A program made the translations under genes and the position numbers. From the UHGV virus genome UHGV-0289455: DNA of 35,338 bases; one strand, written 5' to 3'. The DNA comes from a virus. Positions 25,231 to 32,903 of this stretch are shown here, one piece after another (position 1 is the first letter of the stretch; each line of letters begins with the position of its first letter). The notes under the pieces were generated by a model. The model was not told where the DNA came from. It did not search any database and saw nothing but the letters and a program-made list of their open reading frames with translations.

Positions 25231-25557
25231 TCAAGGACGTGACGGCGTAAAGATAAATTGTCTCTTCACTCCCTGACAGGGGCGATTCTTTTCAAATCGC
25301 CATTTCGCCATGGCCTTCACCACTTCATCACGAAACAAATTATGAGGCTCTGAGCGGAGAAAAACGATCCGTGTCACAGTCCCATCAGCACCAATATCGA
25401 ACTTAACCTCAACCAGCCCCTTGATATAATTTGCTGCAGCATATTCCGGATATCGTGGATACACCGTCACTAATTGCCGGGGCTCATCAGCTTTTTGCTG
25501 CGAGCATCCCACTGCCAGGACAGATAACAGAAAAAGTAGTAAAAGGCGTCTTTTCAT
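25231..25557 (-). CDS. small lipoprotein consisting of a TonB C-terminal-like domain
   Basis: Start taken at MKRRLLLLFLLSVLAVGCSQQ (lipobox-like AVG-C). The rest (YPRYPEYAAANYIKGLVEVKFDIGADGTVTRIVFLRSEPHNLFRDEVVKAMAKWRFE) aligns by eye with the C-terminal domain of E. coli TonB. Confidence 0.6.
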   Translation of the reverse strand: MKRRLLLLFLLSVLAVGCSQQKADEPRQLVTVYPRYPEYAAANYIKGLVEVKFDIGADGTVTRIVFLRSEPHNLFRDEVVKAMAKWRFEKNRPCQGVKRQFIFTPSRP

Positions 25558-25867
25558 TTTTATTCCTACGGGTCTTATTCTGACAATATATCCTGTGTTC
25601 CAGACTGCCACATCACCACATCCTGTGCCATTATCTGACTCACATTACATACATCGCATCGGGATACAGTAGTAGCACTTTCTGTAATACAGCTTCCTGT
25701 TTCTTCCACCATCGCACCGGGATAAACCCGCGAATCATTAACGCGGTAAAAACCCGGTGTGCATCGTTTTTAATTATCCCCGCACACTCGCGCAGAGGAG
25801 TCTCCCTGTCGGGCTGCGGTCTCTGTTAATGAGGGAATATAGCGACGATACGGCGCATCAACAAAAC

Positions 25868-26341
25868 TTATTTCAGGCACTGAGTGCGGATATAGTCCTG
25901 TGCCCCTTCCAGTTGCTTGTGCATCGTCATCAGCCGCTCTCTGAGGGTGAAATAATCCCGTGTAACGGTGTCTGCCAGTTGGGGGCCGGTTGCATTATCC
26001 ACGCCGGAGGTGGTGGGGGCTTCACGCACGGAGCCTGGACAGGTGGCGTTGATCCGCAGGCGCTTACGACCAGCGGCAACGTCAGCGCGAAGAGTTTCAT
26101 TTTCAGCTCTCGCATCGGCTAATTCCCTCGAGTATTTTGCATCGAGCGCAGCAACATCGCGCTGGCGCACCTGCATATCAGTAATGGTTGCGTTCGCCAG
26201 CTTCAGTTCACTGGCTTTGTTATCGCGCTGCGCTTTGTAGGTAATCGCGTTATCACGGTAATGGTCTGTTGCCATCCACAGCGCACCACAGGCCACCAGC
26301 AGAATAACGATAAACGCGGAAAGCATTCGGTTTATGTTCAC
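25868..26341 (-). CDS. Rz: i-spanin Rz
   Basis: 157 aa, N-terminal TM then ...[59 protein letters not shown]...[24 protein letters not shown] matches lambda Rz. Confidence 0.92.
25930..26115 (-). CDS. Rz1: o-spanin Rz1 (lipoprotein, embedded in Rz in the +1 frame)
   Basis: [22 protein letters not shown]...[30 protein letters not shown] matches lambda Rz1. Confidence 0.9.
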
Positions 26342-26666: not shown

Positions 26667-26822
26667 GTTCTCCCTTGCCTTACTCAAGGTCAGAAACACA
26701 AAACCTCGCTTGGTGCCAACAAACGGGTTTTTTACTTTTATTCACTTACGTTTCGCCAGTTCGCAGGATTTCGTGTTATCCGCCCGCGTGGCCATTCCTC
26801 ATTTTTCAGCAAAATATTCTGC

Positions 26823-27356
26823 TTATCTGTCGATACCCCAGCACGCCAGCGCGCTCTCCTGGTCACGACGGGATACCTGACCGTAACAGTTGTTTGAACG
26901 AATACGGCAGTCTCTGCCACCGTCCTTAATCCACCAGCGAATCGCTTCGCAGGCACCTTTTCGATCACCAGCATTAATTCGTCTGTAAAACGTCGACGGG
27001 AAACACTTACCGGGACCAATGTTGTACGGACAGAATGACGCGATCCCCGCTTTCTGGGGTTCGGTCAGCGGCACTCTGATGTTTTTCTCCACCCACGCCA
27101 GCGCTTTATCACGCTCAATGGCGTTAACCTGGTCGCATTTTTCCTTCGACAACTTCATGCCCGGAACGACAGGTTTGCCATCCACCATGATGGCACCACG
27201 GCAGATGGTCCAGATACCTGCACCATCACGGTATGCCGTGGTGTGGTTGCCTTCCTTTTCATCCAGAAACTGGTCGAGAATGTCAGGCGCAGGCGCACCA
27301 GCGGCAATCAGCGCCAGAACGGCAGCCGACAGGCCGTATTTGATTTTGGTGTTCAT
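26823..27356 (-). CDS. R: SAR endolysin (phage-21 R-like lysozyme with N-terminal signal-arrest-release segment)
   Basis: 177 aa; N-terminal weakly hydrophobic Ala/Gly-rich segment (YGLSAAVLALIAAGAPAP), then a lysozyme-like E...D...GIWT.C.G pattern. Confidence 0.8.
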   Translation of the reverse strand: MNTKIKYGLSAAVLALIAAGAPAPDILDQFLDEKEGNHTTAYRDGAGIWTICRGAIMVDGKPVVPGMKLSKEKCDQVNAIERDKALAWVEKNIRVPLTEPQKAGIASFCPYNIGPGKCFPSTFYRRINAGDRKGACEAIRWWIKDGGRDCRIRSNNCYGQVSRRDQESALACWGIDR

Positions 27357-27392: not shown

Positions 27393-28283
27393 CTAAATAC
27401 GCACTTTAAGATAAGTCAGCCCCGGATGAAGCCAGTAAGCCGGCACTTTTTTAAAGGGTGGAGTATTAAAATCACGAAGAAGAGCCTCCCGCACAATTGC
27501 ATCCTTATCAGCACCACTGGCCAGCGCTTCAATCTCAGCGGCTACCTGAAGATATCCCATGCAACGGCCAACGCGCTTCATCAGCCCCTGCTTTTTATTG
27601 TTCTTCAGGTAATCAATGGCAAATTCAATGAGCTCCTCACTGTGCTGGTGCGATGGAGGTGTTACTTTCCCATTTTCTGAGATGGTTATTTTCCCAGCAT
27701 CACCGGATACAACAAAGGATGGCCGGTTACACTCCCATTCCGGGTCACTGAAATTATCATTATGAATACTGAAACACTCTGCGAGATTTCTGCTCATCAC
27801 TTTCCGACAATAATCGTCAAACGCAGCAAACTGCTTTTCATCGCCAGAAGGCACCAATATCGACCATTTCTTATTCAGCTCAACGACGTAGCTCTCCAGT
27901 TTTTCAATACGTGATTCAACATCATCTTTTTCTGACCGCAGTGTTGACGGCGGCATCTTCAGAGAACAAGTAATTCTTCCCGGTAGCTTTCCTTTGTAGG
28001 TTATCAACACATCCTGCGCCTCTAAAATTACGGGGCGCTTTTCCGGCAACGGTTCGTTCCATTCACATAACCCGGCAGCAACATCCATGAAAAACTGCTT
28101 CGCCTGCTTTTTCGCCTCAGCTTCGTAAAACTCCAGCGTGGCACCTTCAGTACGGTCAAGACTAATCGCCACATCTGGCAACAACAGCGACGCTTGCCCG
28201 TCACCTTCCGACTTCACAGTAACAGTAACCTTATCCCCGTAATTATTTATCCCCTTAACAACCAGTTCATATTTTTTATTCAT
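27393..28283 (-). CDS. 296-aa soluble protein of unknown function inserted between holin and endolysin
   Basis: ATG at 28281-28283, 4 nt after the holin stop, with a GGGGAGAG Shine-Dalgarno inside the holin 3' end. No signal peptide, TM segment or motif I recognise; GC appears lower than in neighbouring genes. Confidence 0.6.
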   Translation of the reverse strand: MNKKYELVVKGINNYGDKVTVTVKSEGDGQASLLLPDVAISLDRTEGATLEFYEAEAKKQAKQFFMDVAAGLCEWNEPLPEKRPVILEAQDVLITYKGKLPGRITCSLKMPPSTLRSEKDDVESRIEKLESYVVELNKKWSILVPSGDEKQFAAFDDYCRKVMSRNLAECFSIHNDNFSDPEWECNRPSFVVSGDAGKITISENGKVTPPSHQHSEELIEFAIDYLKNNKKQGLMKRVGRCMGYLQVAAEIEALASGADKDAIVREALLRDFNTPPFKKVPAYWLHPGLTYLKVRI

Positions 28284-28287
28284 CACT

Positions 28288-28503
28288 TTACTCTCCCCGC
28301 GCCGCCTTACGCCGGTCCTCTTTGATTTTGAAATACAGGTTAGTCAGGTACGTCAGCAGCCCAAACAGCAGACTCCCCAGCACGCCTATTGCCGCCCACT
28401 GAGACGGGGAAACCCTGTCCAGCAACTGCAGGAACCAGTAGCCCGTTCCCACCGCTGACGTGGTGTATGACACACCTGTTGTGATTTTTTCCATCTGGTA
28501 CAT
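28288..28503 (-). CDS. S: pinholin S (phage-21 S-like, dual-start motif M-Y-Q-M)
   Basis: [71 protein letters not shown] matches S21 as recalled (71 aa). GGGAGA Shine-Dalgarno upstream. Confidence 0.85.
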
Positions 28504-28579
28504 ACCCCGTCTCCCGTTATCCGGAAGCTCACAACAATATAAAGACCACCGGCACACACCGATGGTCCCTTGCGCAGGC

Positions 28580-29181: not shown

Positions 29182-31158
29182 TCATGCCGCGATGTCCGCG
29201 TTGTTCACTTCCACCTTCACACTGTCAATCAGCAGCGTATATGTCGCCGCCTTTGATATGCCTGTCAGTTGCAGTTTGTCCGCCGCCCCTGATGCCGGAG
29301 ATTTCACCAGTGTGAACGGCGTCCCCCGTTTCTCATCCAGTACCGGCGTCACCTGAATGCTGTTGTTTCCGGCAAACTCAAAAGCCAGTGTGTGCCATCC
29401 GTTATCAAAGACCCCGAACGTTTCCAGCTTCGCATTCGGCTTCTTGTGGTGCATCGCGTTCAGGTTCGTCGCATCCGTCTGCAGAAAGAAGGACATCAGC
29501 ATGTCGTTGCCTTCCTCTGCCAGCGTCACTCCCTCCGGCAGGGACGACAACTGCCAGTAAATGCCCAGGGCAAACTGATTCGGCACCAGTGAACCCGGCA
29601 ACTTAAACCGTACGCTCACACGTCCCCCCTTCTTCAGTAACTCCACTCCCTGTCCGGCTGCATCATGCTCCAGAAACCAGATGTGGTTTTCCGGTTTATT
29701 CAGTTGCAGGGCCTTACCTCCCGTAGCCCCCGCATCACTGACCACCGCTTCAGCAATGTTTTTGTTAACATTGTCTCCGCTCGCCGGTTTGTGATAATAG
29801 CGCCAGCCCTGTGATGCCAGGTCTTCGCCGGACGCCAGCAGACTCATCAGGGTTCGGTTACTGACCGGGGCTTCCGGCTCTCTCTCCGTACCTTCACCGG
29901 AAGGTCCGGTGGGCTTCACCGTATCAGGCTGTTTTCCGGTAATGAATTCAGCGTTTCTCCCGGCATGCACAAGAATCGCCGTTGCCAGACGGTCGGAAAT
30001 AATCCCACGACGTGCCCATGATCCAAAATGCGTTTTACGGTCAGCCGTCGTCCAGGTTTTGGCGTCCGTTCGACCACCGGCTCCGTAATACCCAATATCC
30101 GCAACATCCGGATCTTCTGACGGCTCGTTGGTACCCACATTTCGCCCGTTTTCATCCGTCATAAACGGCACAAAGAAGATTTTTTTTGCGGATTTCGTCT
30201 TGTATGCACCATACACCGCATCGTATTGCGAAGAATAAGTCTGCTTCCAGTAGTAGGTCGTGTCGCCACAAATCCAGGGAACCGATGACGGAGAGCCCCC
30301 GAGACACTGACCTCCGAATTCCGACAGGTCAGAACGATATTTTTCCACCATGGAATCAAACAGCCCCGGCTGGGTGGCGTATGCACCCTGTTTCAAATCA
30401 AACTCGCCCTGCATCCAGACCACTGCAAGCAGAATATTTTTAGGGTTGGCCTTCAGTGCGGCCTGAGTACGGGTAAGCAGGTCCTTGTACAGTGGCTTAT
30501 CTACACCCCAGCGTGCCGAGGTCTCGCTTGCGCCGGTGGATTCGCTGAAGGTACCTTCATCGCCCGCCAAAAATGCAGAACCACCACGGCAGCACGGAAC
30601 CAGAAGAATACCGGCATTCGCCGGAATAAACGGCAACAATTTCTTCGCGATATGTAATCCCTGCCCCACGCATCCATACTGAGCTGCACTGGCTTTCGGG
30701 TGTGAAAACTTACTCAAATCCTGAACATCATGCAGGCAGTGGTCCGCAGGAATAATGTCATTGTAGTTACAGAACGCACCACCCGGCGTGACAGTGCTGC
30801 GACGCGCCAGCTGTTTAATACGCGGGTCCGGACGGTCATATGTCTCCGGCAGCGGAAGCCCTTCACCATACGCCATACCGTTTGACTGCCCGGCCAGGGC
30901 AACAACAAAGTAATACTCCGGGTTGCTGGTGGTGCTGATAACTGCGCCTTCTCCATCCGACGGCTTCACCACCACAGGTGTGGTGACATCACCTTCCGCC
31001 GCAATGGCCTGCATCAGGGTATAAGGCGTGATGGCCACCGGACTGCCAAATGGCTGCCACCCCTCCTTCAGTTTTTGTGTCAGTCGTTTCGCAAGGTCTG
31101 ACGGCGATGCCGCCCTGACAACATCATAGTGTTTAAATGCCATGGTTCTTTCCACCAT
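29182..31158 (-). CDS. nanS-p: prophage-encoded sialate O-acetylesterase NanS-p (DUF1737 N-domain, SGNH/SASA esterase domain, C-terminal carbohydrate-binding region)
   Basis: 658 aa. N-terminus MAFKHYDVVRAASPSDLAKRLTQKLKEGWQPFGSPVA is the DUF1737 signature, followed by VVALAGQSNGMAYGEG (SGNH GQSN motif). Sits between the Q/tRNA region and the holin, as in Stx-phage-like prophages. Confidence 0.85.
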   Translation of the reverse strand: MVERTMAFKHYDVVRAASPSDLAKRLTQKLKEGWQPFGSPVAITPYTLMQAIAAEGDVTTPVVVKPSDGEGAVISTTSNPEYYFVVALAGQSNGMAYGEGLPLPETYDRPDPRIKQLARRSTVTPGGAFCNYNDIIPADHCLHDVQDLSKFSHPKASAAQYGCVGQGLHIAKKLLPFIPANAGILLVPCCRGGSAFLAGDEGTFSESTGASETSARWGVDKPLYKDLLTRTQAALKANPKNILLAVVWMQGEFDLKQGAYATQPGLFDSMVEKYRSDLSEFGGQCLGGSPSSVPWICGDTTYYWKQTYSSQYDAVYGAYKTKSAKKIFFVPFMTDENGRNVGTNEPSEDPDVADIGYYGAGGRTDAKTWTTADRKTHFGSWARRGIISDRLATAILVHAGRNAEFITGKQPDTVKPTGPSGEGTEREPEAPVSNRTLMSLLASGEDLASQGWRYYHKPASGDNVNKNIAEAVVSDAGATGGKALQLNKPENHIWFLEHDAAGQGVELLKKGGRVSVRFKLPGSLVPNQFALGIYWQLSSLPEGVTLAEEGNDMLMSFFLQTDATNLNAMHHKKPNAKLETFGVFDNGWHTLAFEFAGNNSIQVTPVLDEKRGTPFTLVKSPASGAADKLQLTGISKAATYTLLIDSVKVEVNNADIAA

Positions 31159-31403: not shown

Positions 31404-31739
31404 ATGAAGTGGATTGTGATTGATACAGTTATCCAACCATCATGCGGAATATCTTTTTCAGTCATATGGAGTAAAATAAAATTAATAATCTGGTATCAAT
31501 CGGATGCTTTCTTACCTCCTGAAAGTATATTTACACTGACTCACACAGGTATCATGCTCAATAACAAAGTGCTACCTGTAACCATTTACAACGTAGCACC
31601 ATTCAATAAAACATTCTGGAATTTAATCAAAAACAGCCAGGAATGTCCTACAAATACAGATAACGTATTGAATGAATGCTTTAATAACCGTTGCACTCTG
31701 CAAATATGTCCTTATGGACTAAAACAACAAAGTCCATAA
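31404..31739 (+). CDS. hypothetical protein encoded on an AT-rich moron, opposite to the late operon
   Basis: 111-aa ORF with a canonical AAGGAG Shine-Dalgarno 7 nt upstream; the surrounding segment (about 31160-31760) is conspicuously AT-rich; GC-rich hairpin at 31781-31803 downstream. Cysteine-rich C-terminal part. Confidence 0.5.
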
Positions 31740-32540: not shown

Positions 32541-32653
32541 TACTTAACAGAACTTTTATTTTTGACAAACATAAAATATTTTCAACAATATCCTGAGCCA
32601 GGTATATTTCAGTATAAGGCTCTGCCGGAAGGAATCTGGAAGAATGAATATAG

Positions 32654-32727
32654 CGCGCTGTACTGGATTCGAACCAGTGACCGATTGCTTAGAAGGCAAT
32701 TGCTCTGTCCGGCTGAGCTAACAACGC
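32654..32727 (-). tRNA. tRNA-Arg (anticodon UCU)
   Basis: Minus strand GCGTTGTTAGCTCAGCCGGACAGAGCAATTGCCTTCTAAGCAATCGGTCACTGGTTCGAATCCAGTACAGCGCG: cloverleaf with a GTTCGAATC T-loop and a TCT anticodon loop; CCA not encoded. Confidence 0.85.
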
Positions 32728-32827: not shown

Positions 32828-32903
32828 TGGTGGCCCTTGCTGGATTTGAACCAGCGACCTGGCGATTATGAGTCGCTCGCTCTCACCACTGAGCTAAAGG
32901 GCC
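32828..32903 (-). tRNA. tRNA with CAU anticodon (tRNA-Ile2/Met type, ileZ-like of Stx-phage tRNA clusters)
   Basis: Minus strand GGCCCTTTAGCTCAGTGGTGAGAGCGAGCGACTCATAATCGCCAGGTCGCTGGTTCAAATCCAGCAAGGGCCACCA, with encoded CCA; resembles E. coli ileX as recalled. Confidence 0.85.

Follow-up and report, generated by a model that had tools for sequence, protein, structure and literature searches.

A two-module YdfR-family gene in the lysis cassette of enterobacterial lambdoid prophages

The viral genome UHGV-0289455, a stretch of 35,338 nucleotides (nt) that is referred to here as the window, contains a lysis cassette in which a complete open reading frame (ORF) encoding 296 amino acids (aa) is located between the gene for a class II holin (S) and the gene for a lysozyme (R) that resembles the signal-anchor-release (SAR) endolysins. 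The gene order is S-X-R-Rz, where X stands for the 296-aa ORF; all the lysis genes are on the minus strand, and coordinates are those of the whole stretch (Table 1). A sequence-only reading of this locus had described X as an unrecognised gene without an assignable motif that separates two genes which are normally adjacent. Neither description can be maintained: X is a member of the DUF1327, 'YdfR family' or PHROG 1085 group of proteins, and the S-R slot of Escherichia coli prophages, including Qin of strain K-12 and many Shiga toxin (Stx) phages, usually holds a YdfR-type gene. The order S-X-R-Rz itself recurs in K-12 Qin, Stx phages and IMG/VR contigs. The analyses presented below leave us almost certain that X is the full-length, two-module form of YdfR/DUF1327, a soluble, cytoplasmic and dispensable accessory protein of enterobacterial lambdoid prophages.

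The gene and its place in the lysis cassette

Residues 1-100 of the X protein match the Pfam family DUF1327 (PF07041) at 137.9 bits, the gathering cutoff being 25 (E 1.3e-40), and the 296-position profile of PHROG 1085, a family without an assigned function, matches residues 1-296 of 296 (E 3.1e-190). RefSeq gives the product name 'YdfR family protein', and the identical protein is present on at least 1000 contigs. A scan of the protein against NCBIfam returned noise alone. The profile search that had been suggested to identify the protein thus produced a confident match, but to a family that has no known role; no function can be derived for X by homology. X is not a chance reading frame, because of its Pfam and PHROG matches and because its ratio of nonsynonymous to synonymous substitution rates (dN/dS) is about 0.2-0.4 when compared with diverged alleles. 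Two plus-strand ORFs of 84 aa and 145 aa that overlap the region coding for its C-terminal domain were judged to be shadow ORFs.

As regards the anatomy of the cassette, the sequence agrees with what had been read from it: 4 nt separate the stop codon of the holin gene from the ATG of X (junction GGGGAGAG-TAA-AGTG-ATG), the Shine-Dalgarno sequence lies inside the 3' end of the holin gene, and 36 nt separate the stop codon of X from the start of R. An alternative in-frame GTG start codon, present one codon upstream of the ATG, would give a protein of 297 aa. The translation of X is probably coupled to that of the holin. The claim that the protein has neither a transmembrane segment nor a signal peptide is also correct; neither was found in the 296 aa, the maximum value of a 19-residue Kyte-Doolittle window being 0.75 and the grand average of hydropathy -0.41. 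Likewise, the GC content of X (46.1%; 46.8% at third codon positions, GC3) is indeed lower than that of its five neighbours S, R, Rz, the DUF826 gene and nanS-p (54.5-55.7%; GC3 55-71%), and the whole window has a GC content of 52.8%. The N-terminus of lysozyme R, YGLSAAVLALIAAGAPAP, is Gly/Ala-rich and weakly hydrophobic, and judged by its sequence it looks like that of SAR endolysins.

A consensus scan predicted no sigma-70-like promoter on the coding strand between positions 26700 and 29200, which fits read-through from the late transcript, and it detected a single terminator-like hairpin, a weak one, inside the 3' end of X. The view that X is co-expressed with the lysis genes from the late transcript was a sound inference, and there is very little doubt that the gene is transcribed solely with the Q-dependent late operon. 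The suggestion that X is a moron, on the other hand, holds in part: the deviating GC content and the presence/absence polymorphism described below are in line with it, but the consensus scan predicted no promoter for X, its one terminator-like hairpin is weak, and it starts 4 nt after the holin gene. The 296-aa protein is neither a core lysis protein, nor the product of a classical self-transcribed moron, nor a known defence protein.

Table 1. Positions of X, its domains, the lysis genes and further features in the window and in other loci (AF2, AlphaFold2; pLDDT, predicted local distance difference test)
Feature	Sequence	Coordinates	Strand	Basis or remark
X, complete ORF, 296 aa + stop	window	27393-28283	-	ORF list, translation; ATG at 28283, stop codon 27393-27395
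N-module, aa 1-75, DUF1327 core; three strands and a long helix predicted	window	28059-28283	-	PF07041; AF2 pLDDT 61-87
Linker, aa 76-119, low-confidence hairpin	window	27927-28058	-	alignments A1, A2; pLDDT <50
Short coiled-coil-like helix, aa ~120-146	window	27846-27926	-	AF2 helix 122-146
Variable middle, aa 147-185, indel site among alleles	window	27729-27845	-	alignments A1, A2
Conserved C-terminal domain (C-module), aa 186-296, basic, pI 9.3	window	27396-27728	-	alignments A2, A4
C-module DNA, often without annotation	window	27393-27947		see text
C-module DNA, often without annotation	L002	17597-18148		see text
Holin S, S21-type, class II, 71 aa, starts MYQMEK	window	28288-28503	-	PF04971 'phage P21 holin S', E 7e-33
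Shine-Dalgarno sequence of X	window	28291-28298	-	from sequence; ends 7 nt before ATG
Lysozyme R, SAR-type, 177 aa	window	26823-27356	-	PF00959, E 2.4e-24
Rz spanin	window	25868-26341	-	PF03245, E 2e-47
Rz1-like ORF embedded in Rz	window	25930-26115	-	ORF list
TonB_C-like lipoprotein gene	window	25231-25611	-	after Rz
Terminator-like hairpin	window	28541-28570	-	13-bp stem and T-rich tail
NanS-p-like esterase ORF, 658 aa	window	29182-31158	-	intact
IraM-like anti-adaptor ORF	window	31404-31739	+	strand opposite to the lysis cassette
tRNA gene	window	32653-32727	-	see text
tRNA gene	window	32828-32903	-	see text
C-module-only gene, frameshifted	L006	4001-4641		see text
C-module-only gene, frameshifted	L007	4001-4641		see text
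Small opposite-strand ORF	L001	3163-3435	opposite	
Small opposite-strand ORF	L003	3584-3844	opposite	
Small opposite-strand ORF	L013	2108-2395	opposite	
Small opposite-strand ORF	L014	1845-2165	opposite	
Small opposite-strand ORF	L008	4849-5145	opposite	
Small opposite-strand ORF	L012	4881-5141	opposite	
Small opposite-strand ORF	L098	6098-6388	opposite	
Small opposite-strand ORFs	many of L017-L096		opposite	

Two modules, and relatives in three genera

The YdfR protein of K-12 (P76160, encoded on Qin, PF07041) shares with the X protein its N-terminal domain (aa 1-74 of X; 47% identity over 78 columns, E 6e-21), its RefSeq name and the slot between a class II holin and a lysozyme gene, where, in the RefSeq order essD-ydfR-rrrQ, ydfR also starts 4 nt after the holin stop codon. 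It differs from X in having only 103 aa, in carrying an unrelated short tail after residue 74, and in lacking the linker, the coiled coil and the C-terminal domain. Single-domain YdfR proteins typically have a size of about 100-115 aa, which the 296-aa protein exceeds with its additional coiled coil and C-module; this greater size reflects a long-form architecture and is thus no ground for excluding the protein from the YdfR family. K-12 YdfR looks like a short form of a family that has a two-module full-length state. The members of PHROG 1085 and of the RefSeq 296-aa cluster match X from end to end, and no sequence difference sets X apart from them, although the Prokaryotic Genome Annotation Pipeline (PGAP) often annotates just the first 112 codons. 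This is the case in the record of MCJCHV-1, which contains the identical gene and in which these 112 codons alone are annotated, as a pseudogene 'missing C-terminus'; we reject this call as an artefact, the ORF being intact and the reference only about 112 aa long. Among the sampled complete E. coli genomes with a C-module of 98-100% identity, the majority have no annotated feature at the DNA encoding it, which means that a conserved domain is widely unannotated.

Alignments and structure predictions divide the protein into the segments listed in Table 1. According to the alignments and the survey of slots described below, alleles that consist of the N-module only stop at the linker, and alleles that consist of the C-module only start just beyond it. 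The helix following the linker has a 3-4-3-4 hydrophobic pattern (I126/L129/V133/L136/W140) in which L136 is invariant in alignment A1, and the weak PDB profile matches over this stretch are to coiled coils alone. For the C-module, AF2 predicts a small sheet with helices whose core has a pLDDT of 70-84. Its residues H214, I223, L226, G239, L245, Q246, A248, A249, P276, K278, W284, P287, G288, Y291 and L292 are invariant in alignments A2 and A4, and R240 is invariant in A2 and conserved in at least 90% of the sequences in A4. Profile searches identified no Pfam family and no relative among PDB sequences for the C-module. When the whole protein or either module was used as the query, PDB profile searches yielded coiled-coil or helical noise; the top match, to PhoU (E 0.01, 19 bits), we consider meaningless. 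AF2 was run twice, with 24 and 46 sequences, and the mean pLDDT was 51 and 59, respectively, only the domain cores being predicted with moderate confidence; a Foldseek search with the whole model found nothing at E <=0.001 (best E 0.03 in BFVD and 0.2 in PDB). The idea that the N- and C-modules arose by internal duplication was rejected, as hhalign gave a probability of 0.07%.

The family is common in E. coli. Among 5426 complete E. coli genomes searched with megablast, about half (2703) contain part of the ORF, 496 contain at least 80% of it and 777 contain its C-terminal third. An exhaustive search of 1.84 billion cluster representatives identified 74 relatives, and those with an organism name all come from Escherichia, Shigella or Salmonella. 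When 50,697 phage records were searched with tblastn, 106 contained a relative, all of them E. coli lambdoid or Stx phages; three covered at least 80% of the query, for example Stx2_95, which has a 329-aa version in its S-R slot. Queries of the Salmonella type additionally match phage 86 ('YdfR family protein') and Stx2_12E129 over the C-module. A scan of genome contigs with one narrow peptide pattern yielded 3 loci.

The Salmonella relatives have 225-338 aa, share 28-33% overall identity with X and are annotated as 'hypothetical protein'. None of them gives a Pfam match at gathering level, and they retain the coiled coil and the C-module together with an N-module that is DUF1327-like but divergent. 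Because this architecture is retained at about 30% identity, the sequences argue that the two-module protein is the conserved full-length state and that the forms of about 103-116 aa are the N-module alone. In E. coli the gene follows S; in Salmonella and in one further lineage it is located upstream of the holin gene, the Salmonella order being Q, hicAB (on the opposite strand), X, holin and lysozyme. The adjoining holins belong to two Pfam families, PF04971 and PF16080. Thus, the gene stays linked to the head of the lysis cassette, while its exact position and the type of holin vary, and the existence of two holin families and two positions argues against a specific holin partner.

A polymorphic slot under purifying selection

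The survey of the S-R slot covered 80 IMG/VR viral contigs with a holin that shares at least 97% identity with that of the window, in 71 of which S as well as R was found. Of these 71 contigs, 12 (17%) have nothing in the slot, S abutting R with a gap of 1-4 nt. A gene for the N-module only (86-116 aa) occupies it in 29 contigs, a 176-aa form in 4, a full two-module gene (268-328 aa) in 13, the C-module alone (185-214 aa) in 7, and a C-module with a disrupted start in 3; the few remaining slots contain other or disrupted forms. This comparison of S-R junctions, which had been proposed in the sequence-only reading, identifies X as optional cargo: the empty slots show that it is dispensable for the cassette and, being optional, it is not a component of the lysis machinery.

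The modules can also be found in other arrangements. Stand-alone C-module genes are present in the loci L013, L014 and L015; in L015 the gene directly follows the holin gene, and in L013 the C-module is followed by a DUF1327 fragment, which is the reversed order. As the modules occur alone, fused or reversed, they are separable units. The 4-nt spacing after the holin stop codon is maintained whichever module comes first. Alleles show mosaic identities, for instance an N-module that is 87% identical combined with a C-module that is 100% identical, which indicates recombination within the gene.

Selection was estimated as dN/dS by the method of Nei and Gojobori, against diverged alleles. For the C-module the values are 0.16-0.41 (median 0.30 in one comparison set). 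The N-module gives 0.31-0.35 when its two main allele classes, which are 52-55% identical, are compared, and 0.6-1.06 within the closest allele class. The linker has a value of about 0.6 and the variable middle 0.28-0.48. Both domains are therefore under purifying selection, with a dN/dS of about 0.3. Frame disruption in relatives, which had been named as a possible argument against a functional gene, does occur: L006 and L007, which come from one strain each of Shigella flexneri and E. coli, have a frameshift near the equivalent of residue 272-279 in a C-module-only gene of 43% identity, pointing to decay of the family in some lineages, and a few IMG/VR loci are also frame-disrupted. However, intact copies dominate and purifying selection is evident; frameshifted copies are expected in decaying prophages and are not the rule.

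Variant cassettes other than that of the window contain small ORFs of 86-106 aa on the opposite strand, between the YdfR-type gene and the next lysis gene (Table 1). They are of several sequence types, a 90-aa type, 'MDNNTISLQELL...', being present in 11 of the 80 IMG/VR loci; one example of the Salmonella type matches Pfam DUF1883, and one slot contains a 210-aa ORF. These small ORFs may be morons that are expressed in the lysogen.

With respect to the holin itself, the N-terminus of the window holin (M-Y-Q-M-E-K) has the same dual-start layout as the S protein of phage 21 (MKSMDK), and its three-residue extension lacks the Lys. It is the Lys in this extension that defines the S21-71 antiholin form. 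YdfR-type genes are likewise found in the slot next to MKSM-type holins (K-12 Qin, L006 and L007), showing that slot occupancy does not track the N-terminus of the holin. The idea that X substitutes for an antiholin that is missing in MYQM-type holins is not supported, since slots next to MKSM-type holins are also occupied and those next to MYQM-type holins can be empty.

Further accessory cargo, the IraM-like anti-adaptor ORF and the TonB_C-like lipoprotein gene, lies on either side of the lysis cassette. The window has an undisrupted NanS-p-like esterase ORF, relatives of which RefSeq names 'DUF6645 domain-containing' or 'SASA family carbohydrate esterase'; in the MCJCHV-1 prophage, which is 99.9% identical, the annotation gives its counterpart as frameshifted. 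The Q antiterminator gene is separated from the late cargo by two tRNA genes, one for Arg(tct) and one for a tRNA with a CAT anticodon (Met according to ARAGORN, Ile according to RefSeq); such a pair in this position is typical of Stx-like lambdoid prophages. The place of the TonB_C-like lipoprotein gene is the one that bor occupies in lambda. The coding strand carries the terminator-like hairpin listed in Table 1 in the stretch from the DUF826 gene to the holin gene, and Q-modified polymerase would be expected to read through it.

A possible link to RNase E, and competing explanations

The only experimental lead comes from the K-12 protein. A two-hybrid screen yielded a fragment of K-12 YdfR comprising residues 1-72, the complete protein interacts with residues 1-597 of RNase E (Rne), Rne 1-598-FLAG co-purifies with Strep-YdfR, and the Strep-YdfR eluate contains DNase-resistant nucleic acid (PMC13232886, RNA Biol 2026). 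Together with binders of the Srd/RapZ type, K-12 YdfR was assigned to operational group II; as cited in that study, Srd of phage T4 and RapZ of E. coli bind Rne's N-terminal half and alter the decay of particular RNAs (PMC13232886). The likeness to these two proteins is limited to the way they may work, as tblastn against the 50,697 phage records detected no sequence relationship. Furthermore, Srd is a protein of a virulent phage whereas X is part of the late operon of a temperate phage. The N-module of X (aa 1-74) aligns to the region homologous to the YdfR 1-72 interaction surface.

Taken together, the solubility of the protein, its late-only expression, its dispensability, the lack of specificity for a single holin and the data on YdfR lead to a model in which X encodes a late, dispensable and cytoplasmic accessory protein that acts on RNA metabolism. 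We favour this role over one in lysis timing or in defence, but only tentatively, and the complete explanation, comprising the identity of the protein as well as this mechanism, is the best one we can offer while falling well short of being established. According to this model, the DUF1327 N-module would attach the protein to the N-terminal, catalytic half of RNase E, a step for which the 103-aa K-12 homologue provides all of the experimental support; the short coiled coil would oligomerise the protein; and the basic C-module would be a second, independent module that might bind RNA, bind a partner or be an effector. That a stand-alone C-module gene exists in the same slot suggests that this module could also work as a separate protein. 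RNase E-dependent decay would change for late phage or host transcripts, as with RapZ or T4 Srd, and the action would take place late in infection, in the cytoplasm and outside the lysis machinery. The analysis shows that the gene is intact, how its domains are arranged, conserved and selected, how the slot varies and in which genomic context it lies; binding of RNase E by the allele of the window, the roles of the coiled coil and of the C-module, and the effect on RNA decay are all steps that we infer.

It should be noted that several observations weigh against this model. Binding of RNase E is known for the K-12 protein alone, under conditions of overproduction, and since YdfR co-purifies RNA the interaction could be RNA-bridged. 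The N-module of X is just 47% identical to the protein that was tested. Overproduction of YdfR changed few transcripts and did not affect growth (PMC13232886). Nothing links the C-module to RNA, neither a fold nor a family match having been found for it, and the AF2 model is poor overall, with a mean pLDDT of 59. Finally, the persistent linkage to the holin gene across genera could mean that the role is related to lysis. A more elaborate version, in which YdfR proteins form a modular, recombining two-part system whose DUF1327 domain tethers a hitherto undescribed effector domain, the C-module, to the catalytic core of RNase E late in infection and thereby reprograms the decay of late transcripts or host mRNA, is in our opinion unlikely.

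The linkage to the holin gene is the starting point for a rather doubtful alternative, namely that X encodes a cytoplasmic regulator of lysis timing that advances or delays triggering by binding either the pinholin's cytoplasmic tail or the short N-terminal segment that the SAR endolysin has in the cytoplasm. The distance to the holin gene never exceeds two genes, whether X lies after S as in E. coli or before it as in Salmonella and the other lineage; its 4-nt spacing is kept with either module in front; and the longer dual-start product of the window holin (MYQM) does not have the antiholin-defining Lys. Precedents for regulators that are encoded with lysis genes are available. T4 RIII, for example, is a soluble antiholin cofactor. 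In phage Mu, gp25 is a releasin (DUF2730) that acts on SAR endolysins through its cytoplasmic domain, so that a non-holin regulator of SAR endolysin release does exist (PMC9239132). Mu gp25, T4 RIII and the S21-71 antiholin are comparable to X in being non-essential or regulatory proteins encoded with the lysis genes. However, Mu gp25 and S21-71 are membrane proteins, the X protein has no transmembrane segment or other membrane anchor, there is no sequence similarity, and the slot is empty in 17% of the near-identical cassettes (the 12 of 71 having the same holin). The association with both PF04971 and PF16080 holins, the occupancy of the slot irrespective of the holin N-terminus, MKSM-type included, and the absence of a growth effect when K-12 YdfR is overproduced (PMC13232886) further argue against this alternative. 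A function in defence, superinfection exclusion or anti-defence, with the late operon used for expression, is distinctly unlikely. The low GC content relative to the flanks, the presence/absence and shuffling of modules in a recombination-prone slot, the narrow host range (Escherichia, Shigella and Salmonella) and the other variable cargo nearby (nanS-p and iraM, and hicAB in Salmonella) would all suit such a function, but a scan against PADLOC-DB 2.0 gave no meaningful defence match (best PbeC, E 0.018, 11.3 bits) and no enzymatic or sensor domain can be recognised. Moreover, without a promoter of its own and positioned 4 nt after the holin gene, X would be silent in the lysogen, where prophage defence acts, and would be expressed too late for anti-defence.

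It is very improbable that X is decaying or functionless filler consisting of fused, hitch-hiking prophage remnants. The abundance of shortened or divided versions (86-116 aa, 176 aa and 185-214 aa), the frameshifted copies in L006 and L007, the pseudogene label on the identical MCJCHV-1 gene and the dN/dS of 0.6-1.06 of the N-module within its closest allele class could be taken as signs of decay. Yet at least 1000 contigs carry the 296-aa ORF in intact form, the pseudogene label stems from the ~112-aa reference, and dN/dS is low for the C-module as well as for the N-module between allele classes. In addition, the two-module architecture and some 16 invariant C-module residues have been kept at about 30% identity in Salmonella, and the gene is present in records of the Stx2-converting phages 86, Stx2_95 and Stx2_12E129. 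Lastly, the soluble protein is located in a late-operon cargo region that is shared with nanS-p and, in related phages, with stx, so it might be an extracellular effector that, like Stx toxins and NanS-p esterases, accumulates in the cytoplasm without a signal peptide and is released upon lysis. We regard this as scarcely credible: the protein has no similarity to a toxin, an enzyme or an adhesin, and the sole experimental datum, obtained with K-12 YdfR, is an intracellular partner, RNase E (PMC13232886).

The family to which X belongs resides in the best-studied type of phage lysis cassette; it occurs in about half of the complete E. coli genomes and in many Shiga-toxin phages. What is new is that the short YdfR of common annotations represents a single module of a longer protein, which is conserved and built of two modules; that purifying selection acts on the second module, a domain without a name, whose DNA is left unannotated by RefSeq in many of the sampled genomes; and that the two-module architecture is present in Salmonella at about 30% identity and upstream of the holin, the slot being polymorphic and purifying selection acting on both domains. 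The reported interaction between K-12 YdfR and RNase E provides a concrete hypothesis for inducible prophages. If true, it would link the expression of late genes, and possibly the production of Stx, to the RNA decay machinery of the host, and a two-part RNase E tether would be the first modulator of RNase E encoded among the late genes of a temperate phage, present in about half of the E. coli genomes. Such a system could affect the yield of Shiga toxin and the burst size; in Stx phages the late transcript is the one that bears stx.

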